Under the pieces are notes generated by a model. That model worked only from the letters and a program-made list of their open reading frames with translations, made no database searches and was not told where the DNA came from. From positions 202,434-266,433 of the forward strand of contig JAIOQZ010000032.1 in assembly GCA_021108395.1 (NCBI GenBank): a stretch of DNA of 64,000 bases, in the 5' to 3' direction. Positions 5,087 through 49,554 of this stretch are shown piece after piece (positions within the stretch are counted from its first letter, which is position 1; every line of letters starts with the position of its first letter). Both the position numbers and the translations under genes were made by a program. The DNA is from Candidatus Cloacimonadota bacterium. GTDB taxonomy: Bacteria > Cloacimonadota > Cloacimonadia > Cloacimonadales > JAIOQZ01.

Positions 5087-6304
5087 ATGATTCGTACCGT
5101 CATTGTTTTGTTTCTGGCAACCTGCATTCCATGCGCCTGCGCTTGGCTGCCCCCCAATCCTGCATACATCACCCCCAGCGCGCCACCTCAGACCGAAATC
5201 GCCGCCGAGCAATCCACACAGCCGCCACTCGCCACAGCGAGCGAACAAGTCCCGCCAGAGCCGCTGCCAGAAGCCAGCGAGCCGCCGCCGGGGACGGAAC
5301 CACCCGTTGAGTACGAACCGCCGCCAGAGCCACCCCGTCATCTCACTGTGGCCGCCGTGGGCGACATCATGCTGGGAACCGACTTCCCAGAGGCGCACTA
5401 TCTGCCGTCCGCCGATGGCCGCGGCCTGCTGGACAGCGCCCTCATCGAATTGCTGGCGAGCGCCGATGTGGCGCTGGGCAATCTCGAAGGCGTCTTTTGC
5501 GATGGAGGAGAACCTCGCCTGCCCAACAAGACCTACAGCTTTCGCATGCCGCCGCGCCTGGCGCCGCGACTCGCCGAATGGGGCTTCGATTTTGTCAGCC
5601 TGGCCAACAACCACGCCCGTGACTTCGGTGACGACGGCTGCGCGCAGACAATCGCCGCTTTGCAGGCGGTCGGAATTGTCTATGCCGGGCTTGAGGAACA
5701 CCCCACCGCCGTGCTGCGCCGCAATGGACTGCGCGTGGGCTTTGCAGCCTTCGCGCCCAACGCAGGAACGGTGAATTTTCATCGCCAGGCGGAAGCGCGG
5801 CGCATCGTGGCCGCTCTGGCAGACAGTTGCGACATCGTGCTGGTGAGCGTTCATGGCGGGGCCGAGGGCGCCGACGCCTTGCATGTGCCCCGTGAAGAAG
5901 AGATGTATCTGGGCGAGAACCGCGGCGACATCTACGCCTTTGCGCGGCTGGTTATCGACGCGGGCGCGGACGCCGTGTTTGCGCACGGACCGCATGTGCC
6001 CCGTGCCCTCGACCTCTACAACGAGCGCATCATCGCCTACAGTCTGGGTAACTTCTGCACACCGGCGCGGTTCAATCTGTCGGGCACAGGCGGCCTGGCT
6101 CCGCTGCTGCTGGTGGAGCTGGACGAGGCGGGGCGTTTCGTGTCGGGCCAGCTTGTCTCGTGCAGGCAGGCCTATGGTCGCGGCCCGCGCCTTGATGACA
6201 CCCGCGAAGCCGCCGCGCTCATTGGCGACCTCACCCGCGAAGACATCCCAGAAGCGCCGCTGCGCATCGAGGCGGACGGGCGTGTCTGGCCGGTGGTGGA
6301 ATAG
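5087..6304 (+). CDS. CapA-family (PGA_cap, metallophosphatase-fold) protein, paralogue 1
   Basis: VAAVGDIMLG, LGNLEGV, SLANNHARDFG, VSVHGGAEG, FAHGPHV, YSLGNF. SD GGAGG before the ATG. N-terminal signal-like segment followed by a Pro/Glu-rich linker. Confidence 0.85.
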   Translation: MIRTVIVLFLATCIPCACAWLPPNPAYITPSAPPQTEIAAEQSTQPPLATASEQVPPEPLPEASEPPPGTEPPVEYEPPPEPPRHLTVAAVGDIMLGTDFPEAHYLPSADGRGLLDSALIELLASADVALGNLEGVFCDGGEPRLPNKTYSFRMPPRLAPRLAEWGFDFVSLANNHARDFGDDGCAQTIAALQAVGIVYAGLEEHPTAVLRRNGLRVGFAAFAPNAGTVNFHRQAEARRIVAALADSCDIVLVSVHGGAEGADALHVPREEEMYLGENRGDIYAFARLVIDAGADAVFAHGPHVPRALDLYNERIIAYSLGNFCTPARFNLSGTGGLAPLLLVELDEAGRFVSGQLVSCRQAYGRGPRLDDTREAAALIGDLTREDIPEAPLRIEADGRVWPVVE

Positions 6305-6363
6305 CTTGACTGTTTCGTACGAGATGCAGTTGACTGAACACATACTTTGAGTGGAGGACGACA

Positions 6364-6840
6364 ATGAAGAATATCGCAATGAGTTGTTTGGTATCGTTAC
6401 TGATATTGCTGCCGGTGACACTTTCCAGCAATGAGGAGCCACTGAACGCGATAGAGGTTTTTCATAAGAATCAGCCCCCGTCTCTACAGACACTGGAGAA
6501 GGTAAACGGCCTTCTCGACGAGTATAGCGGCGAATATGAAATGACATTCTACAACATAAGCGATTCCGTAAATATCGCCCTGATCAGGGAATACAATCTG
6601 CCGGACACTCATTTTCCGTTTGCGGTTGTAGTTAACGGCAACTACTCGGCAGAAATCGATGGCAGGAAGGTGGATTTTGTCCATTTCCCTTTGTTCATGC
6701 ACGGTATCGGACGACATGAGGGTAACTGGTCGCTGAATGACTTGAGCGCTGTACTGGACGATAACTCGTTGCTGCTTGAAGAAAACATTCTGCCCGTTTT
6801 AGAGGATGACGAGGACAGCGAAGACGAATGCCTCGAGTGA
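6364..6840 (+). CDS. Hypothetical exported protein with acidic C-terminal tail
   Basis: Signal-like N-terminus MKNIAMSCLVSLLILLPVTLSS and C-terminus EDDEDSEDECLE. No catalytic motif recognised. Confidence 0.55.
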   Translation: MKNIAMSCLVSLLILLPVTLSSNEEPLNAIEVFHKNQPPSLQTLEKVNGLLDEYSGEYEMTFYNISDSVNIALIREYNLPDTHFPFAVVVNGNYSAEIDGRKVDFVHFPLFMHGIGRHEGNWSLNDLSAVLDDNSLLLEENILPVLEDDEDSEDECLE

Positions 6841-6940
6841 GATTTACGAGTAAACAGTCTTAAGGGCTTCCAGCCACAGTTAAGTTAACGCTATCATTAT
6901 TCGGAAGTACTACACATTACCCAGCTTGTACCACCTTTTT

Positions 6941-6986
6941 CACCCCCCTGTCAAGGGGGGAAGCCGCGAAAGCGGCAGGGGGGTAT
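6941..6986 (-). repeat. R-module repeat, copy R1 (inverted relative to R2/R3)
   Basis: cacccccctgtcaaggggggaagccgcgaaagcggcaggggggtat. This is the reverse-complement counterpart of the 46-nt core of R2/R3. The inner hairpin is GCCGC-GAAA-GCGGC. Confidence 0.9.
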
Positions 6987-6998
6987 AATCCGCCTATT

Positions 6999-7382
6999 CT
7001 ATATTCCCAGCTCACATTTACGATTATTGATGCGTCTCAGCAGATCATCGCAAACACCTTCCAGATTCTGCATCACATCCCGATTCGAATAGCGTATAAC
7101 CGTGATGCCCTGCCGATGCAATTTATTTTCTCGTGACGCATCATAATCTTGTTTTTCTGCATGGTTATCCCCGTCGATTTCCACAGCCAGTTTCAAAGCA
7201 GCACAATAGAAATCCACGATGAAATCACCGATGGGTCGTTGCCGGGTGAACTTATAGCGTACAGTCTCTCGCCTGGATAATAGCTGTTTCCACATACGGA
7301 CTTCAGGGAGACAGCCCGAACGACGATTTTGTCGTGCATAATCTACGAGTTGTGGTCGGTATTTGAGATTTTTCTTTGGCAA
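6999..7382 (-). CDS. DUF559 (Vsr-like) endonuclease-domain protein
   Basis: RMWKQLLSRR..YKFTRQRPIGDFIVDFYC..KLAVEIDGDNH..ITVIRYSN matches the DUF559 signature as I remember it. The TTG start directly abuts repeat R2. Confidence 0.8.
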   Translation of the reverse strand: MPKKNLKYRPQLVDYARQNRRSGCLPEVRMWKQLLSRRETVRYKFTRQRPIGDFIVDFYCAALKLAVEIDGDNHAEKQDYDASRENKLHRQGITVIRYSNRDVMQNLEGVCDDLLRRINNRKCELGI

Positions 7383-7384
7383 AA

Positions 7385-7460
7385 ATACCCCCCTGCGGCG
7401 TTGCCGCTTCCCCCCCTTGACAGGGGGGTGTAAATCGGATGCAAACCGGTCACACCGGGT
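7385..7460 (+). repeat. R-module repeat, copy R2 (46-nt core plus a 19-nt conserved tail)
   Basis: atacccccctgcggcgttgccgcttcccccccttgacaggggggtg ... caaaccggtcacaccgggt. About 89 percent identical to R3 over 76 nt by hand alignment. Confidence 0.9.
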
Positions 7461-7500
7461 ACATTACCGTAATCTCACAGCCTTTGAACACCCCATCGAT

Positions 7501-7546
7501 GTTACCTATGTCCCCGGTTCAATCTGTAACCCATGTGAGCAGTTTG
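7501..7546 (+). repeat. S-module repeat, copy S1
   Basis: tgtccccggttcaatctgtaacccatgtgagcagtttg (7509-7546) matches 54783-54820 at 34 of 38 positions without gaps. It is preceded by the related sub-repeat gttacctatg. Confidence 0.85.
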
Positions 7547-7605
7547 TTGCAACTTCAAATTCACAATGTACTTAGCAATTGCATGTAGATATATGTGCTG
7601 GTTTG

Positions 7606-8163
7606 TTATTTTCTGCTACTCAGGACTAATGTCGATGGCAACGGGAATGAAGTAGGCAATAATTCGATTCTGAATGGTAATCCCATATTCGATAATTCTT
7701 CCATCTTCATATTCATCAGACTATTTACTACACAATAATTATGAACCAGCTTCAAGTAGCGTCGAATAATCATCAACGGCAGGAAATGGTCTTTATCTTT
7801 CATCCACTCCATCAAATCTTTTTTTCCCTTTGAACTGTTACAAGATTTACAGGCATAGACTAAATTATCGGCATTGTCTGTTCCCCCGTATTTCTTCGGA
7901 AAAATGTGGTCCATAGACAGATTGGAATTTGAGCCGCAATAGTTACAAATTTGCCCTGTTTCCAATTTAATTTTTTCGTCATCAAATATTGTTCTCATGT
8001 TCATAGTTCCATTTTTCAGACCTTTGAATAATTTAGCTCTTATCATAAAATTCAACCTTGAATATCTATCTTGTTTCTTTTTAACTGCCATATGAGCCAT
8101 AGCTAAATTCGCATACGACCAATATATTTTATCGCAGACTATTTCAATATTCTGTTTTGCCAT
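7606..8163 (-). CDS. HNH (His-Me finger) endonuclease
   Basis: CNYCGSNSNLSMDHIFPKKYGGTDNADNLVYACKSCNSSKG (CxxC..DH..N..CxxCN). SD-like GAGGAAG just upstream of the ATG. Codon usage is strongly AT-rich, unlike the flanks. Confidence 0.85.
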   Translation of the reverse strand: MAKQNIEIVCDKIYWSYANLAMAHMAVKKKQDRYSRLNFMIRAKLFKGLKNGTMNMRTIFDDEKIKLETGQICNYCGSNSNLSMDHIFPKKYGGTDNADNLVYACKSCNSSKGKKDLMEWMKDKDHFLPLMIIRRYLKLVHNYCVVNSLMNMKMEELSNMGLPFRIELLPTSFPLPSTLVLSSRK

Positions 8164-8312
8164 TTACTTCCTCACGATATATGTAATTGCCCACAATGTT
8201 TCTCACTGCCACGTTCTTCGACATGCGACTTCTACTTTGTCCCAGAAACTCAAACCTGTTACCCATGTCATGATAATAAACTGAGTACCATGTATTGGAC
8301 TTGACATGAATG

Positions 8313-8387
8313 ATACCCCCCTGCGGCGTTGCCGCTTCCCCCCTTGACAGGGGGGTGAACCCCCGGTACAAACCGGTCACACCGGGT
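8313..8387 (+). repeat. R-module repeat, copy R3 (direct repeat of R2)
   Basis: atacccccctgcggcgttgccgcttccccccttgacaggggggtg ... caaaccggtcacaccgggt. It ends 3 nt before the stop codon of the XdhC-like gene. Confidence 0.9.
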
Positions 8388-8390
8388 GCG

Positions 8391-9197
8391 CTACTTCAAA
8401 CTCCCCACATCCTCCACCCCATTATACACCCCCAGCATCTCGGCGGCAATGGCTACGGCAATCTCGGCGGCGGTGGTGCGCGCCACGTTCAGCCCGATGG
8501 GTGCATGCACCCGCGACAGCCAGTCGGCCGCATCATCCACTTGTTCTTCGATGGCCGCGAACGTGGCCGCCACCTTGCGTTTGCTGCCAATCATGCCGAT
8601 GTATGCGCAGTCAACGCGGCGTGCGCAGAGCGTGCGCAGGATGTCGAGGTCGGCGCCGTGGCCGTGGGTGAAGATGATCACCGCGTCATGCGAGCCAGGC
8701 GAGAACGTGGCGGCGTAGTCGGCGTAATCGACAGTGTCGAAGGCGCTGGCCTGCGGGATGCGCTCGATCGTGGCCATGCCGGGGCGGTCGTCGAGCGCCA
8801 CCACGTGGAAGCCGACGCTACGCAGAATGGGCGCAAGCGCCTGGCATAGGTGCCCCGCGCCGAACAGAAAGGCCCGTCGCGCCGCCGGGATGTGTTCGAG
8901 GAAGACGCGGATGTCGCCGCCGCAGGCCATGCCGAGTCCATCTGCGTCCTCTGTGAGGGTGTAGGTGAGCAGCGCCGTGCCGCCGTCTTGCAGCAACTCG
9001 CGGGCTTTCTGCGTCACCACACGCTCCACATTGCCGCCGCCAACGGTGCCGCGTGTTTCGCCGTTTGCACACACCAGCAGCTTGAATCCCGGCCTGCCGG
9101 GCATACTCCCAGCCGCTTCGACGACCGTGCACAGCACATAGCCCTCGCCGGATTCGCTCAGTCCGGCGGCCAGACGCAGAACGTCGGCGGGGTTCAT
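8391..9197 (-). CDS. XdhC/CoxI-family accessory protein
   Basis: GYVLCTVVEAAGSMPGRPGFKLLV..GTVGGGNVE (XdhC_CoxI block) and FLFGAGHLCQALAPILRSVGFHVVALDDRP (Rossmann-like C-terminal block). Confidence 0.8.
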   Translation of the reverse strand: MNPADVLRLAAGLSESGEGYVLCTVVEAAGSMPGRPGFKLLVCANGETRGTVGGGNVERVVTQKARELLQDGGTALLTYTLTEDADGLGMACGGDIRVFLEHIPAARRAFLFGAGHLCQALAPILRSVGFHVVALDDRPGMATIERIPQASAFDTVDYADYAATFSPGSHDAVIIFTHGHGADLDILRTLCARRVDCAYIGMIGSKRKVAATFAAIEEQVDDAADWLSRVHAPIGLNVARTTAAEIAVAIAAEMLGVYNGVEDVGSLK

Positions 9198-14007: not shown

Positions 14008-14358
14008 TCACCTCACGAAACAATCCCAAGATGTAGAAGACCATTGAAAAGTGGGGATTGCAGGGATTGGTGGAAGGTTTGGGATGGGTGGAATTGGTGG
14101 GATATAGGGTATAGGTGGAATAGGTGGAATACACGGGACAGGAAGTATTGGACCACCAGTTGCTCCTTTGATAAAAGCAACAGCTGCACCTTGATGATCA
14201 CGGAAGAATCCCTTGTTGAAGATGCCTAAATGGTTGCCATTATAGGAGAATAGGTTGGATCTGTTGATAAACGCAACATGCTCTCCTGACATGCTCAGTA
14301 TTGCATTTTCCTTCAGCCAGCTTACAACAGAACCGTTTCTATTGTATATAGGTTGCAT
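14008..14358 (-). CDS. 4-fold beta-flower-like repeat protein with an (I/L)PP-repeat tail
   Basis: Four ~16-aa units: IYNRNGSVVSWLKENA / ILSMSGEHVAFINRSN / LFSYNGNHLGIFNKGF / FRDHQGAAVAFIKGAT. These are followed by GGPILPVPCIPPIPPIPYIPPIPPIPNLPPIPAIPTFQW. SD GGAGG sits 5 nt upstream. AT-rich. Confidence 0.7.
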   Translation of the reverse strand: MQPIYNRNGSVVSWLKENAILSMSGEHVAFINRSNLFSYNGNHLGIFNKGFFRDHQGAAVAFIKGATGGPILPVPCIPPIPPIPYIPPIPPIPNLPPIPAIPTFQWSSTSWDCFVR

Positions 14359-14388
14359 ATAACCTCCAAGCAGTGAGTGATGTGCAGA

Positions 14389-15135
14389 TTAGTCTGAAAT
14401 ATCCAATATATGCTCTCTTGCAGCTTGAGCAACGATATCTTTTAAGCAAAGAACAGATGTTGGAAGATGTTCATCATTCGTCTCATCATGCTCCCAGCAA
14501 ATTAGGACATCTACTTCATCAGGTCTATGATTCCCAATGAAATCGCGAGACCTAATCTTGAACTCTGCAATGAGATATTGAGATGTGTTCCGATCAATTA
14601 ATATTGCATCTGGTTTTGCTCTGGATGACCCATCATCTCTTTGCTCTCCATAGTAATTGGGGAGCAGATTCTGAATAAGTGATTCAGAGGTTCCAGCGCA
14701 GTATTTGAATTCGGTGAGATCTTGGATACTTCCAAATATCATGTATAGATCTGTCTCATATCGAGGCATCCAAGTCTCGTGAAGCAATGGAGTATAATGC
14801 TCTATGTGTATATGCTTTGCATGTTGTCTATCTAGCACTGTTTGGGCGGCTTCTGGTTTTTCGTATTGGACTATTTCAGGTAGAATTATCAAAATTAAGT
14901 GATTTGATTTTGAGTACTTAACTTCAACTTTGTTTTTGTCCTTAAGATCTGGAAAAGACTCATAGAGCTTGCTTAGTCCAGTAATGACATGAGTGTAAAT
15001 AAGTTTCCCCTTCATTTCTACGTCTTCCTCATGGCCTTTGACTTGGACATTGATTCTACCAGGCTCAAGATTGTACTTCCGAACGAAACTTGCTCCTAAA
15101 TGAAGTGACATTATTTCCTTATACAATTTGGCCAT
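14389..15135 (-). CDS. Hypothetical protein with a C-terminal PD-(D/E)xK (restriction-endonuclease-fold) motif
   Basis: KPD(195)AILIDRNTSQYLIAE(210)FK(212), then VDVLICWEHD (numbering from the listed 267-aa ORF). ATG 15135 with SD AGGAGG is preferred over the listed start at 15192. AT-rich. No adjacent methyltransferase. Confidence 0.65.
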   Translation of the reverse strand: MAKLYKEIMSLHLGASFVRKYNLEPGRINVQVKGHEEDVEMKGKLIYTHVITGLSKLYESFPDLKDKNKVEVKYSKSNHLILIILPEIVQYEKPEAAQTVLDRQHAKHIHIEHYTPLLHETWMPRYETDLYMIFGSIQDLTEFKYCAGTSESLIQNLLPNYYGEQRDDGSSRAKPDAILIDRNTSQYLIAEFKIRSRDFIGNHRPDEVDVLICWEHDETNDEHLPTSVLCLKDIVAQAAREHILDISD

Positions 15136-15324
15136 CTCACCACCTCCTGTCCAGATTTCAACAATCCTGCTTTTCTCTCTTCTTTTCGTCAAGATAAAAC
15201 TCGTTTCTGGACAAAATCAACTATAGTTAATCCAACAACTTGCGCCATTCCTCCTCTCCTCGTTGCTAATTACTACCTGCTAATTGCTAATTGATATTGA
15301 CAGCTTTCCCTCCACGCGCAAACT

Positions 15325-42629: not shown

Positions 42630-44564
<1,935 letters not shown>

Positions 44565-44608: not shown

Positions 44609-46912
44609 ATGAGAAAGAAAAGATCCGAATCAAGGTCACGATATTTTATTCGAGATCAATCTGAGAAAAGGGGGTGGAATCTACAACATCCTGCGCGAAA
44701 TGGAGATTGTTTAGAAGAACAAGAGATTGTTGATTTTTTTCCTGATATCGGACTGGGGCTTGGCCGCCCCGATTTCTTGCTATGCAGAAATGGTTTACCC
44801 GCGTTAGTTATCGAAGCAAAAAATGAAGCTGGTAAAATTGAAAAAGCAATCAATGAAGCGATAGATTACGCGAACACAATCAACACGGCAGGAAATTACA
44901 CAATCAAGATAGCAGTTGGGGCTGCAGGGGAAGAAAATCATGGATTTGTTGTGGAAGTGCGATACTTGCAGGATAATTTGTGGAAACCACTTAAATACAA
45001 CGGTTATGAGATAACAACGATCCCCTCTAAAAGAGAGGTTGATAGAGCTTTGCTTGCTGATGACGCTACAACAAGTGTAGAACCACCGTCGGTTGAAGAA
45101 TTCATTGCTACAGCAATCGAATTAAGTAAAATCCTGCGATTATCGAAAATAGAGGCATCCCTTAGGCCAAAAGTTATTGGGGCTCTAACTCTCGCTATGT
45201 ATCAAGGGGATATTAATACAAGAAGCGAAAGGTCTCTACATAGTATTAACAAACTTTTAGAGGATGCTATTAATGGATTAGTAGATTTAACTGACGAAAA
45301 ACGAGATAGACTCTCTGAATCTCTCAGGCTTCCGAGTGCCGATTATGATAGGCTTAGTTCTTATATTGCTAAAATAGTGCATTTGCTTCGAGGTTTGAAT
45401 ATCTGTGCCGTGCTTCAAACTGACACTGATTTCCTTGGTTTATTTTACGAAGCATTTCTTCGTTATGGATATGATAATAAAGCACTTGGTATCGTTTTCA
45501 CGCCAAGGCATATCACAAATTTCTGTTCTGAACTTGTCAGTGTGAAACCGACAGACAAAGTGATTGATATTGCATGTGGCACAGGTGGTTTTCTTGTTGC
45601 AGCTTTCGACAGAATGATGGCTGCTGCTCATGGGCCTAAAGCAATACTGAAAGTGAAGAAGAGTCTTTGTGGTTTTGATACAAACCCAACAATATGGGCA
45701 TTGGCAACTCTCAATATGTTTTTTCGAGGTGACGGTAAAACGCACATAGAATATCAAAGTTGTTTTAATGAACAATCAAAGAAGGCAGTTGCTGATTCTT
45801 TTACGAAAGCATTTCTGAATCCACCATTTTCACAGGAAGGTGAGCCGGAGCGAGACTTCATTGATGCATCTATGCAGGCCTTAGAGCCAGAAGGTATTCT
45901 CGTTTCGGTTGTAAAGGCGGGTATTTTTGCAGATGATGAGCATAAAAAATGGAGAAAAGAATTTACGCGAAATCATACCATTCTTGGAATGATAAGTCTC
46001 CCTGAAGATCTTTTTTATCCAACGGCTGCCCAAACTACGATATTAATTGCATTGGCTCATGTTCCACATCCCACTGACGGAAGAATCTTTATGGCCAGAA
46101 TATGGAATGATGGATTTGAGAAATTGAAAGGAAAACGAGTGCAAGTTGAAGGTAGTCAATTGCATTCAACAGTGGAGGCTTTTCATAAAGCAATGGCGGG
46201 AGATTGTGTAGAAAGTGTTAATGCCGTTACAGTTTCATCAGAATTAGTTGTTAGTGGAAATGAATGGAGTCCTCAGCAGTGGCTACCTCAACAAGAAGAG
46301 TCAGAAATGGGGATGGAAAAATTGAAAAAAGATGTTCGCATTTCGATATTCAGGGCTGTTACGATGTTGCCAGAACTTGCTGATTGCGTTATAGGTGGTT
46401 TTAGTGAATCATGGGAAAATAATGGGAAACTTGAGCTTGATAAATCAGAAGCTGTAAGTTACTTTTTTCATGTAATAAATGGAAAATCTAGAGGAGAAAA
46501 AAACTATCGAGAAGGCTCAATCCCCTATATATCTAGTGGTGACACCTCAAACAGTATTATTAGAACAATTGACCCAGAAGACGGTGAGGTTTTTGAGAGT
46601 GGTGGTATTACTGTTACAGCTTTTGGGCAAGCGTATATGCAACCTTGGGCATTCATGGCAAGGGGTAATGGTGGCAGTGCGGTTCGTGTCCTGATTCCTA
46701 AATTCGACATGACAGTAAATGATCTGATCTGGTTTGCAGCTCAGATAAATTCACAGAAATGGCGTTTCTTTTATGCTCGGATGGCAATTAAATCTCGCCT
46801 TCAGAGACTAGTAGTAACTAGCCCACATAGCAGATTGAAGGATAGCGGAAAGAAAATTGAAAACAGAGTGCGTGAATTTAAAAAACTACTATACAAACTT
46901 AGTGAAACATGA
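44609..46912 (+). CDS. Single-polypeptide restriction-modification enzyme (type IIG-like: HsdR-N-type nuclease, gamma-class N6-adenine methyltransferase, HsdS-like target-recognition region)
   Basis: N-terminus RPD(55)FLLCRNGLPALVIE(69)AK(71)NE. Methyltransferase motif I VIDIACGTGGFLVAAF and motif IV NPPF. The C-terminal ~230 aa resemble half of an HsdS subunit (GKSRGEKNYREGSIPYISSGD). SD GGAGGTGAG. Strongly AT-rich compared with gyrB and gyrA. Confidence 0.8.
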   Translation: MRKKRSESRSRYFIRDQSEKRGWNLQHPARNGDCLEEQEIVDFFPDIGLGLGRPDFLLCRNGLPALVIEAKNEAGKIEKAINEAIDYANTINTAGNYTIKIAVGAAGEENHGFVVEVRYLQDNLWKPLKYNGYEITTIPSKREVDRALLADDATTSVEPPSVEEFIATAIELSKILRLSKIEASLRPKVIGALTLAMYQGDINTRSERSLHSINKLLEDAINGLVDLTDEKRDRLSESLRLPSADYDRLSSYIAKIVHLLRGLNICAVLQTDTDFLGLFYEAFLRYGYDNKALGIVFTPRHITNFCSELVSVKPTDKVIDIACGTGGFLVAAFDRMMAAAHGPKAILKVKKSLCGFDTNPTIWALATLNMFFRGDGKTHIEYQSCFNEQSKKAVADSFTKAFLNPPFSQEGEPERDFIDASMQALEPEGILVSVVKAGIFADDEHKKWRKEFTRNHTILGMISLPEDLFYPTAAQTTILIALAHVPHPTDGRIFMARIWNDGFEKLKGKRVQVEGSQLHSTVEAFHKAMAGDCVESVNAVTVSSELVVSGNEWSPQQWLPQQEESEMGMEKLKKDVRISIFRAVTMLPELADCVIGGFSESWENNGKLELDKSEAVSYFFHVINGKSRGEKNYREGSIPYISSGDTSNSIIRTIDPEDGEVFESGGITVTAFGQAYMQPWAFMARGNGGSAVRVLIPKFDMTVNDLIWFAAQINSQKWRFFYARMAIKSRLQRLVVTSPHSRLKDSGKKIENRVREFKKLLYKLSET

Positions 46913-46998: not shown

Positions 46999-49554
46999 AT
47001 GATACACGACAGATCGCGGATTGAGACCGTCGAAATCGAGGACGTACTCAAGAAGGCGTACCTGGAATATTCTATGAGCGTCATCGTGTCGAGGGCACTT
47101 CCCGACGCACGCGACGGCCTCAAGCCATCCCAGCGGCGCATCCTGTACGCCATGCACGAGCTAAACCTGCAACCCGGCAAAGGCTTCCGCAAATGCGCCA
47201 AGATTGCCGGCGACACCTCGGGTAACTATCACCCGCACGGCGAGCAGGTCATCTATCCCACGCTGGTGCGCATGGCGCAGCCGTGGAGCCTGCGCAACAT
47301 GCTCATCCAGGGCCAGGGCAACTTCGGCTCGCAGGACGGCGACCCGCCGGCGGCCATGCGTTACACCGAGGCTCGCCTACAGGCCGCGGCCGTCGAGCTT
47401 ATGGCCGACCTCGACAAAGACACCGTTGACTTCCGTTCCAACTACGACGACACCCGCAAAGAGCCGGTCGTATTTCCTTCCAGGTTCCCCAACCTGCTGG
47501 TCAACGGCAGTTCGGGCATCGCCGTTGGTATGGCCACCAATATGCCGCCGCACAACTGCGGCGAGATTTGCGACGCCATCACAGCGCTCATCGACAACCC
47601 CGAACTCGAGCCGCTGGATCTGCTCGAATACGTGAAAGGCCCCGACTTTCCCACCGGCGGCTACATCATCGGCAGCAAGGGCATCCGCGACTACTTTCTC
47701 ACCGGTCACGGCCGCATCATCATGCGTGGCAAGGCCGTCGTCGAGACCAAGAACAACGGCACCGAACTGATCGTCATCAGTGAAATTCCATATCAACTGA
47801 ACAAGACGCTGCTCATCAACCGCATCGTGAACCAGGTGAAAGAGCGCCGCATCGAAGGCATCTCCGACATCCGCGACGAGTCTGGCCGCCAGGGCATGCG
47901 CCTTGTCATCACCGTCAAGCGCAACTACGAGGCCGGCGCAGTTCTCAACAAGCTCTATAAATACTCGCAGCTCCAGGATTCCTTCAGCGTAAACAACCGT
48001 GCGCTGCTGCATGGCGAACCCAAGGTTGTCGGCCTCAAGGAGCTGATACAGTATTACATCGACTTCCGCCACGAGGTGGTGGTGCGTCGCACGAAGTTCG
48101 AGCTTGACGCAGCCGAGAAGCGGCTGCACATCCTCGAGGGTTATCGTATCGCGCTGGACAACATAGACGCTATCATCGCCACCATACGCGCCAGCAAGAC
48201 CACTCAGGAAGCCAACGAGAACTTGCAGAAGGCGTTCAAGCTGTCCGAGATACAGGCAAAGGCTATCCTCGAAATGCGTCTGCAAAAGCTTACCGGCCTC
48301 GAACGCGAGAAGGTCGAAGAGGAATATCGCAGCATCGTGAAGACGGTCGATCACCTGCGCAAGATACTGTCCGACGTGGGCATGCGCATGGGCATCATCA
48401 AGAGTGAAACGGACGGGATTCGCAGTAAATACGCCGACATGCGTCGCACAGTCATCCTCGAAGGCTCCGCCGACATCGAGACCGAAGACATGATTGCCGA
48501 CGAAGATATGGTCGTCACCATCAGCCACCAGGGCTACATCAAGCGTCTGCCGGTGGATACATACCGCAAGCAGGGTCGTGGCGGCAAGGGCCTGGCCGGC
48601 GGCAACCTCAAGGACGAGGACTTCGTCGAGAGTATCTTTGTGGCCAGCACCCACGCTTACATACTGTTCTTCACCGATTTTGGCAAGTGCTACTGGCTCA
48701 AGGTGCACCGCATTCCACGCCTGGGGCGCCTGGCGCGTGGCAAGGCTGTGGTGAACCTGCTGCAGCTCGAGCAGAGTGAGCGCGTCGAGGCGTTCGTGAC
48801 CGTACGCGACTTCGAGCAGCCGCACTTCATCACCATGGTGACCAGGAACGGCATCGTGAAGAAGAGTGCCCTGAACGCATTTGCGCGCCCCCGTAGCACC
48901 GGCATCATCGCCATCAGGCTCATCGACGGCGATCAGCTCATTGACGCCCAGATTACCGATGGCGGCAACGACATCATCCTGGCCACCCGCGACGGCTTCG
49001 CCAACCGCTTCGCCGAGTCCGATGTGCGCTCGGTGGGCCGTGCTTCGCAGGGCGTTCGCGGCATCCGACTGCGCGAGACTGACCGTGTTGTGGCGATGGT
49101 TGTGGTGCGCCGCGAGGGCACGCTGCTGTCCATCAGCGAGAACGGCTTTGGCAAGCGAACTCTCATCAGCAGCTACAAAAATACGCATCGCGGCTCGAAG
49201 GGCGTCATCACCCTGAAAACCACCGATCGCAACGGCCACCTGGTGTGCCTGCTCGAGGTGGTGGACAACGACGACCTCATCATCGTCAGCCGCGGGGGCA
49301 TGATCATTCGCCAGGCAGTCGAGAAAATATCCGTCATCGGGCGCAACACCCAGGGAGTGAAGCTCATCGAGCTGCGTGCTAACGACAAGGTTTACGACGT
49401 CACGCGAATCGCTTCGGAAGAAGAAGATGACGACGACGAAGAATCAATTGACGAAACCGCCGCGACAGTGGATGCTGACGGAGAATCTTCCGGCAAGGAC
49501 GGTGGCGCCGATGAAACGACAATGCCCGACACAGATGTCGAGGACCAAGAGTAG
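46999..49554 (+). CDS. gyrA: DNA gyrase subunit A (with an acidic C-terminal tail)
   Basis: [54 protein letters not shown], and beta-pinwheel repeats. C-terminus EEEDDDDEE... Confidence 0.97.

Follow-up and report, generated by a model that had tools for sequence, protein, structure and literature searches.

Structured double-hairpin repeats flank a DUF559 nuclease gene in a Candidatus Cloacimonadota contig and may be the arms of a compact selfish DNA element

The 64,000-nt stretch of the Candidatus Cloacimonadota contig JAIOQZ010000032.1 analysed here (hereafter the window) carries, in a region of low guanine-plus-cytosine (GC) content between two host genes, three copies of a structured repeat of about 76 nt, R1, R2 and R3, together with two short nuclease genes. 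On the minus strand, from which both nucleases are encoded, the order is R3, an HNH endonuclease gene, R2, a DUF559 gene and an inverted R1, with all genes from xdhC through DUF559 co-oriented (Table 1). The low-GC region is of foreign base composition, which was counted for a foreign origin; the DUF559 gene itself has a GC content of 0.45, against 0.66 in the flanking host genes. The DUF559 protein, a Vsr-like PD-(D/E)XK nuclease, is also recognized by the NCBIfam DUF559 model, shows PDB 3hrl as its closest solved structure (E = 1e-18) and preserves every family-invariant residue in the columns of the homologue alignment, D57, D70 and H74 among them, and there is no intron or intein at its locus. 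The DUF559 and HNH proteins are each 100% identical to NCBI entries of a Candidatus Cloacimonetes metagenome-assembled genome (MAG), and the 158-aa open reading frame beyond R1 has no family match in Pfam or NCBIfam.

Table 1. Features of the R region (positions in the window)
Feature	Positions	Strand	Remarks
PGA_cap gene	5087-6304	+	Host gene, left border of the low-GC stretch
Low-GC stretch	6305-8390		GC 0.34-0.47, between host genes at GC 0.66
158-aa open reading frame	6364-6840	+	GC 0.47; signal-peptide-like N-terminus; inside the low-GC stretch
R1	6911-6989	+	Core 6937-6986, degenerate tail 6911-6936; just past the DUF559 3' end, lone tract towards the gene
R1, parts		+	C6 6943-6948, loop TGTCAA, G6 6955-6960, inner hairpin GCCGC-GAAA-GCGGC 6963-6976, lone G6 6978-6983, TAT
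R1, covariance-model match	6941-6985	+	16.3 bits, E = 0.024
DUF559 (Vsr-like PD-(D/E)XK) nuclease gene	6999-7382	-	127 aa, TTG start, Pfam PF04480 E = 1.1e-29
R2	7385-7460	-	Directly upstream of DUF559, lone tract towards the gene
R2, parts (read on the + strand)			ATA, C6 7388-7393, T, inner hairpin GCGGC-GTT-GCCGC 7395-7407, TT, C7 7410-7416, TTGACA, G6 7423-7428
R2, tail hairpin	7446-7458		CCGGT-CAC-ACCGG
R2, covariance-model match	7384-7430	-	16.8 bits, E = 0.016
HNH endonuclease gene	7606-8163	-	Free-standing, between R2 and R3; Pfam HNH E = 9e-12; GC 0.34
R3	8313-8387	-	Orientation as R2; inner hairpin 8323-8335, hairpin 1 8338-8355, tail hairpin 8373-8385
R3, covariance-model match	8313-8357	-	15.0 bits, E = 0.065
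xdhC	8391-9197	-	Host gene, right border of the low-GC stretch
Promoter-like site TTGCCG-17-TATAAT	8421-8449	-	Candidate; in the xdhC 3' end; 10/12 matches; points through R3-HNH-R2-DUF559

The repeats follow a three-tract design comprising (i) a C-run, a loop and a G-run that form hairpin 1, (ii) a variable inner hairpin, and (iii) a lone G-run, so that R3 and R2 read (C6-TGTCAA-G6)(inner hairpin)(lone G6) on the minus strand. The original prediction, made from the letters of this region, had described R2 and R3 as direct repeats about 89% identical and R1 as an inverted copy, and all three were recovered. R2 and R3 agree at 68 of 76 positions (89.5%, global alignment) and contain a 31-nt exact direct repeat (7385-7415 = 8313-8343) that the repeat search extends as a 66-nt repeat at 79% identity, and the inverted-repeat search pairs R1 with R2 (6937-6986 with 7385-7434) over 50 nt at 84% complementarity. 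The 398 nt between these two arms are nearly all filled by the 384-nt DUF559 gene, and the lone G-run of one arm is complementary to the lone C-run of the opposite arm. In a three-way alignment the reverse complement of R1 is about 75% identical to R2 or R3 over 76 nt, and R1 therefore keeps a degenerate copy of the tail too. R3 ends 3 nt before the xdhC stop codon, at the right edge of the low-GC stretch, and the peptide TPLSRGEAATPQGG is its minus-strand translation. A search of the whole 64-kb window for further copies returned only R1, R2 and R3.

The internal details proposed earlier largely stand as well. The small tail hairpin is present in both R2 and R3, and the core consists of two adjacent hairpins plus a third C6 tract as had been drawn, with the correction that the spacer after the first C6 is T and not TG. 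The compensatory stem change between copies is equally real: the inner hairpin GCGGC-GTT-GCCGC of R2 and R3 becomes GCCGC-TTTC-GCGGC in R1 read in the same orientation, the middle G:C pair being flipped to C:G on both arms and the loop being different. Under DNA parameters each 50-nt core forms two adjacent hairpins (z = -3.2 to -4.9), a stability matched by 0 of 200 shuffles.

Chance similarity or an assembly artefact is hardly credible as the source of this arrangement. The k = 31 Logan contigs of the same organism (SRR15668623) do have their breakpoints precisely at the repeats, at or next to R2 and R3: one (L121) has both its ends in the 31-nt exact repeat, as read directly, and, as inferred from coordinates, a second (L203) ends about 77 nt past the xdhC stop codon, at R3, and a third (L205) ends in a DUF559 call stretched to 137 aa, to the contig end at R2. 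Such breaks are, however, expected of a 31-mer graph at a 31-nt exact repeat, and the same R1/R2/R3 arrangement is assembled in an independent 308-kb ENA/NCBI contig. In addition, none of 100 dinucleotide shuffles reproduced the repeat matches (two for the 28-nt left part and three for the 18-nt hairpin CCCCCCTTGACAGGGGGG, against 0.00 and 0.06 expected), and the architecture recurs in hundreds of unrelated contigs. The same graph effect accounts for a 957-bp Logan contig that runs from R2 to R3 and is bounded by the 31-nt exact repeat, which is a k = 31 break and not a circle, and with it the circular excision product of the HNH cassette that had been envisaged is set aside.

The layout of the window recurs at DUF559 genes elsewhere. 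A set of 80 metagenomic loci that encode proteins related to the window DUF559 (the 80 best of more than 583 matches) was scored for a module comprising a C-run, 3-14 nt, a G-run, 1-30 nt and a G-run. Of 74 DUF559 loci, 49 have such a module no more than 150 nt upstream of the gene, whereas 6 of 1385 background windows from these loci contain one (~0.4%), which bears out the earlier suggestion that the element travels with DUF559 genes. Among 65 unique loci with both flanks, the module is found upstream in 44, its reverse complement just downstream in 33, and both in 27, with the lone tract of the nearest module facing the gene upstream in 43 of 51 cases and downstream in 33 of 38. The R2-DUF559-R1 arrangement is the layout of these loci, and all three R copies fit the module design, with its lone G-run facing the gene and its optional inner hairpin. 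The two closest homologues examined (L215 and L216) are laid out as in the window, the flanking inverted repeat of L215 measuring at least 44 nt. Tandem arrays of the upstream module are common at DUF559 loci, for instance six modules with a 66-nt period in L133 (~945-1305) and, before the DUF559 gene of P0052, seven in-frame translated FPPDKGGKTDRQ units with a 36-nt period; R3 plus R2 fits the pattern.

The modules also leave a trace in protein databases. Peptides derived from the core had been likened in the original prediction to spurious N-terminal extensions of DUF559 proteins, and a PPxxGG-type motif is indeed carried by 32 of 112 DUF559 homologues, against 0 of 120 HNH homologues. Extensions such as FPPDKGGKGGY, NPSQPPLVRGGA...SPDKGRAGEGF and QPPSIPPCQGGG are translated C-run/loop/G-run/G-run DNA. 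Because 43 of 47 loci offer an in-frame start codon after the module, these extensions are probably gene-calling artefacts, and a genuinely translated extension is unlikely.

The hairpins vary in sequence while keeping their pairing. At the position of the inner hairpin more than 20 different stem sequences occur, including GCCC/GGGC, GGTC/GACC, CAGGC/GCCTG, CAGTCG/CGACTG, GGCGC/GCGCC, GTCCC/GGGAC, CATTGC/GCAATG and TGTCCTGC/GCAGGACA, among others. A scan for the full two-hairpin design gave 64 unique module instances, with pairing required by the scan, and a first covariation count on them was set aside as circular, the instances having been selected for pairing. Two comparisons are non-circular, pairing not having been used for selection: (i) in modules picked by their three runs only, with spacers of 9-24 nt, a spacer hairpin of at least 4 bp occurs in 45%, against 12.5% after shuffling (maximum 21%); and (ii) in a subfamily anchored on the constant flanks GGAGGGG ... 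GGGGTGGT, a hairpin of at least 4 bp occurs in 26 of 30 unique spacers, against 32% after shuffling (maximum 60%). A covariance model built from 12 sequences of this GGAGGGG-flanked subfamily, none of them from the window, was run against 435 kb and yields 244 matches at E values of up to 1. Within the 64-kb window it recovers R1, R2 and R3 in the correct orientation (Table 1), plus one weaker overlapping match to the self-complementary R1 hairpin, and gives no other match. In an alignment of 135 distinct sequences, which was fitted to the covariance model and hence leans towards structure, 95% of cells pair against 84% in shuffles, and 9 of 11 pairs change on both sides, with 153 doubly changed cells against 61 in shuffles (reached by 0 of 500). 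The selection on hairpin structure that had been argued from the R copies alone is thus upheld by covariation in further copies. The length of the lone tract tracks that of the hairpin C-run (Spearman 0.56, n = 179, for modules that are not phylogenetically independent). The TTGACA loop is not conserved in the family (TTTGAA, TTAATAA, TCATA and others), which rules it out as a conserved -35 box.

The inner hairpins bear the marks of structures formed by DNA. Their loops are GNA (GAA, GCA, GTA, GGA) in 33 of the 64 unique modules and the complementary TTC in one, and the closing pair is C-G in 49 of 64. C-GNA-G and GCGNNAGC are extraordinarily stable DNA mini-hairpins (PMC3201870, PMC13037366). 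The family resembles d(GCGAAGC), d(GCGAAAGC) and C-GNA-G in that its inner hairpins are mostly C-GNA-G triloops and R1 contains GCGAAAGC, although the mini-hairpins are a physical-chemistry motif and not a genetic element, and R2 and R3 have an AAC loop instead (PMC13037366, PMC3201870). Which strand carries GNA depends, at both gene ends, on the polarity of the module and not on the mRNA strand, the inverted downstream copies having GNA on the antisense strand. At two hairpin-1 positions on the GNA strand, T.G wobbles outnumber other non-pairs by 45 to 3, and the corresponding count of G.T against A.C inside the inner stems of DUF559 loci (1 vs 1) is uninformative. In a Rhizobium MAG (L010, L016, L026, L099), palindromic module pairs have inner stems that keep G.T wobbles at fixed positions of the G-rich strand, occasionally replaced by A-T or T-A pairs, a pattern suggesting that folding is needed on one strand only.

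These marks bear on a rival explanation at the RNA level, in which the upstream module would be a structure of the 5' untranslated region, its lone G-run serving as or masking the ribosome-binding site, and the downstream copy a 3' stabilizer or processing site, the inverted repeat merely reflecting hairpins at both ends of the mRNA. The constant orientation of the module to the gene and its position near the start codon agree with such a cassette, as do the tolerance of upstream wobble pairs on the sense strand, the RNA fold of R1 (z = -3.1) and the co-oriented xdhC-DUF559 genes with a promoter-like site upstream; promoter-like sites around the R region are not above shuffles (6 observed vs 4.2 expected). 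In the window, moreover, the lone G6 of R2 stands 5 nt before the TTG start and may, for this copy only, double as the ribosome-binding site. On the other hand, the distance between lone G-run and start codon ranges from -1 to 65 nt in the family with no preferred value, an absence of fixed spacing that rules out the lone G-run as a dedicated Shine-Dalgarno sequence. In the downstream copies the GNA loop and the wobbles fall on the antisense strand, which would leave the mRNA with the disfavoured version; C-GNA-G triloops are a DNA rather than an RNA signature, and many copies are gene-less or stand in tandem arrays. No intrinsic terminator (hairpin plus U-tract) is predicted, with 0 terminator-like sites in 6200-8600 against 2.1 expected, and the terminator role entertained for R is rejected on this count. 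Searches of Rfam gave, for the window, nothing above chance level (top score 19 bits, cutoff 40) and, for 20 module-bearing loci, only tRNAs. Action of the arms at the DNA rather than the RNA level is favoured because of the GNA loops, the strand that follows module polarity, the T.G wobbles, the lack of a terminator and the lack of a fixed start spacing, and we consider the RNA cassette rather improbable.

Comparison of the DUF559 loci with one another, all against all and with 800 nt of flank available per side, delimits a unit. Some pairs share module, gene and module only (~0.5 kb) within unrelated flanks: L133 and L140 are 88% identical over 486 nt and L172 and L194 83% over 464 nt, and L143/L172, L187/L194 and others behave like L133/L140. 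The homology runs from the outer edge of the upstream module to just beyond the downstream module. Units of one subfamily have the form AATT-(CCCCTCC nnn GGAGGGG)-T-(inner hairpin)-GGGG-TGGTT ... gene ... AACCA-CCCC-(inner hairpin)-A-(CCCCTCC nnn GGAGGGG)-AAT(T), outside which the DNA is AT-rich and unrelated; AATT is its own complement and hence uninterpretable as a target-site duplication. The two arms of one unit may differ in their inner hairpin, as in L172, L194 and L216 and as in R1 versus R2.

Modules are also found away from DUF559 genes. A loose pattern (C6, 2-24 nt, C6-TTGACA-G6) scanned in species-representative genomes returned at least 113 loci, in Nitrospinota, Burkholderiales, a Rhizobium MAG, Geobacter-like Deltaproteobacteria, Caldisericales and others; a single MAG frequently has many copies, and palindromic pairs are frequent too. 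Gene-less palindromic pairs occur in the same and in other genomes, some with a palindromic centre; their lone tracts face each other in 28 cases in the genome loci and 12 in the DUF559 loci, and point outward in 61 in the genome loci. In Burkholderiales MAGs (L014, L018, L081, L092, L112, L116) there are gene-free, REPIN-like palindromes of ~110 nt composed of a module, ~20 nt and an inverted module, the centre (e.g. TTGGTTTTCGGAAAACCAA) being itself a hairpin. Among the matches listed, the nearest relative of the exact R is a Caldisericales locus (L086) with the same layout and AAC loop and a wholly different 8-bp inner stem. At 5380-5570 of this locus, inside a long open reading frame with YD/RHS-like repeats, two modules of the same orientation lie 130 nt apart, one with a plain AATAAA spacer and the other with the 8-bp inner hairpin; the inner hairpin therefore behaves as an insertion into the spacer.

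The gene-less pairs bring in the main rival explanation. The modules could form an independent palindromic repeat family, akin to REPINs or miniature inverted-repeat transposable elements (MITEs), spread by another enzyme, with DUF559 homing into its centre; the gene would be copied into a cut at the junction of lone G-run and lone C-run and so split the enzyme's own site, and R1 and R2 would be the halves of a target rather than transposon ends. Palindromes with facing lone tracts, some of them palindromic-centred, exist as such targets would, and a dimeric PD-(D/E)XK enzyme cutting a palindrome is plausible from restriction-type enzymes. The lone tract with a short subfamily motif (TGGTT/AACCA, ATGT/ACAT, TAT/ATA) always adjoins the gene, module-rich loci mostly lack DUF559, and the Vsr/DUF559 clade includes a homing endonuclease family (PMC3424549, PMC9403480). 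Homing nevertheless sits badly with the window, which holds no further R copies to serve as targets, and with the genome loci, in which outward lone tracts are the commonest gene-less arrangement (61 vs 28); a filled/empty allele pair was not found among the loci compared. We regard it as unlikely, though to be taken seriously.

The inverted repeat around DUF559 has a further possible reading, namely that R1 and R2 are recombination sites that flip the DUF559 segment and so turn a potentially toxic nuclease on or off with respect to a promoter outside it. Inverted repeats of 50 nt bracket the gene exactly, and among the predicted programmed-inversion targets of one survey 'DUF559 domain-containing protein' is over-represented (odds ratio 14.3), a result undiscussed there (PMC9881135). 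This independent enrichment among genes overlapped by inverted repeats reads as a statistical pick-up of the repeats described here, whose sequence, structure and link to a mobile unit are undescribed in that survey. An invertible switch would leave the double-hairpin design, the GNA loops, the tandem arrays and the gene-less copies unexplained, no recombinase or invertase gene lies among the neighbours of the window DUF559, and an inverted variant was not seen among the loci compared. We judge the switch very improbable; it and the RNA cassette are both less well supported than homing.

The HNH gene between R2 and R3 stands apart. A link of the element to HNH genes had been proposed together with that to DUF559, and it fails: the peptide signature occurs in 0 of 120 HNH homologues, the window HNH shares with the locus of its nearest homologue (L206) only the coding sequence, from -10 to near the stop codon at 82% nucleotide identity, and two of three HNH contexts (L206, L213, L214) have no module, the third (L214) showing one weak module-like match ~70 nt upstream. 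HNH was rejected as part of the R/DUF559 system on these three observations and on the breadth and operon contexts of its family, and blastx of the HNH flanks found no DUF559 remnant (E > 0.05). The family counts more than 1000 homologues at ~70% identity in several phyla (Bacteroidota, Margulisiibacteriota, Cloacimonetes), which sit within ordinary operons, e.g. between menC- and menE-like genes, and it looks like a highly successful free-standing mobile gene. The window HNH gene, lying between two tandem copies of the arm, is probably free-standing, mobile and independent of the R/DUF559 unit.

Elsewhere in the window, a 767-aa gene with N6_Mtase and HSDR_N domains, restriction-modification-like and with GC ~0.39, is inserted at 44609-46912 (+) between gyrB (42630-44564) and gyrA (46999-49554). 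A second low-GC islet (14008-15192, -; GC 0.40) directly follows asnS and encodes a 116-aa '4-fold beta flower' protein (PF21784, E = 5e-33) and a 267-aa open reading frame with no Pfam match.

Compared to known systems, the locus belongs to a familiar kind, in which structured repeats accompany the gene of a selfish nuclease or transposase, and what is new is the DUF559-linked double-hairpin module. In the REP/REPIN-RAYT systems, built on repetitive extragenic palindromic (REP) sequences, the mobilizing enzyme is encoded by a short gene with hairpin repeats on its flanks (PMC3337134). The likeness extends to gene-less inverted doublets, to a short (~0.4-0.5 kb) gene for a DNA-cleaving enzyme flanked by inverted repeats (here 50 nt at 84% in R1/R2, with modules on both sides in 27 of 65 loci) and to an apparent subfamily-specific pairing of repeat type and gene. 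Dispersed gene-less copies, characteristic of these systems, amount here to many copies and doublets in some MAGs, with DUF559 not seen in those loci, and to three copies rather than hundreds in the window. The module, in addition, is three-tract with an extra variable hairpin, and mobility is here putative. The R unit is not a REP/RAYT member, because its gene encodes a PD-(D/E)XK DUF559 protein (Pfam E = 1e-29; PDB 3hrl) and not an HUH/Y1 transposase.

Other systems share single traits. Vsr-like (EDxHD) homing endonucleases such as I-Bth0305I belong to the Vsr/DUF559 fold clade and are small, patchily distributed selfish nuclease genes of foreign composition that reside in group I introns or inteins and lack structured repeats at their flanks, whereas the DUF559 gene is here free-standing between hairpin arms (PMC3424549, PMC9403480). 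MITEs and small insertion sequences are likewise short units with an inverted repeat at each end, unrelated flanks and shorter gene-less versions, but no target-site duplication was seen here among the loci compared, the arms are nested hairpins of 45-75 nt and not simple terminal inverted repeats, and the gene is not a known transposase. The ends of IS200/IS605 elements and other single-strand hairpin sites resemble the arms in strand-asymmetric conservation and in a hairpin function on one strand, as would apply here; unlike the arms, IS200/IS605 ends are not inverted repeats and they need a Y1 transposase. An integron attC cassette array was rejected, R1 being inverted relative to R2 and R3 and no integrase being found among the neighbouring genes. 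As the original prediction had supposed, no description of DUF559-flanking structured repeats was found, in full-text literature (subscription-only literature being outside the search), and no Rfam family matches them.

Taken together, R may form the structured arms of a compact selfish DNA element that has the DUF559 nuclease as its sole gene, a proposal to which we give roughly even chances. The unit would be R1-DUF559-R2, ~0.5 kb long (6937-7430, or 6911-7460 with tails), and R3 an extra tandem copy of the upstream arm. The repeat anatomy, the covarying structure, the oriented association with DUF559, the presence of the unit between unrelated flanking sequences and a foreign base composition are observed directly. 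The arms would function as DNA, folding on an exposed single strand or extruding as cruciforms, and could provide the recognition or processing structure for copying the element and its gene-less palindromic derivatives, with the DUF559 nuclease as the likely enzyme acting on them; the movement of the element, its route through single-stranded or cruciform DNA and the part of DUF559 are all three inferred. The gene-less palindromes would then be non-autonomous relatives of the unit.

Several points weigh against this proposal. We know of no transposase or structure-specific activity for DUF559, and its characterized relatives are mismatch nickases or homing enzymes. The inner loop of R2 and R3 is AAC, not GNA, and only three copies lie within 64 kb, so there is no dispersed family there. 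Among the matches listed, DUF559 lies nearby in only 1 of the 113 module-bearing genome loci, and the pattern of the exact R layout, CCCCCCT-N10-22-CCCCCCTTGACAGGGGGGTG, has 0 matches in metagenome and viral contigs, so that the expectation of a widespread core holds for the architecture and not for the exact 46-nt core. The metagenomic loci carry no taxonomy, their counts are not phylogenetically independent, and the module calls were made by simple regular expressions. Among the loci compared, there is no empty site, presence/absence polymorphism or target-site duplication at the arm ends; proteins neighbouring the window unit are matched only in the same genome and sample. Finally, the unit-boundary evidence, a unit in unrelated flanks, would fit whole-unit transposition and repeated homing of the gene into dispersed palindromes alike.

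Bacterial genomes very often encode small stand-alone DUF559 proteins, to which, to our knowledge, no role has been assigned, and annotation pipelines often add spurious proline/glycine-rich N-terminal extensions to them. A broader proposal, which we advance tentatively and with some doubt, is that DUF559, the double-hairpin arms and the gene-less copies make up an unrecognized selfish class that crosses phyla, a PD-(D/E)XK counterpart of REP/RAYT that would spread via single-stranded or cruciform hairpins and would give the stand-alone DUF559 proteins a function. Should this be wrong, the modules would still be an undescribed and very widespread structured element deserving a curated model. 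The covarying double-hairpin bracket in fixed orientation, seen across many phyla, leads to a testable hypothesis, in which DUF559 proteins would serve as the nucleases of a selfish element bounded by hairpins, and its non-autonomous copies would be REPIN-like. If true, it would explain both the recurrent annotation artefact and the 'programmed inversions' signal at DUF559 genes, and would add a new enzyme class to the few systems that spread structured repeats in bacterial genomes.

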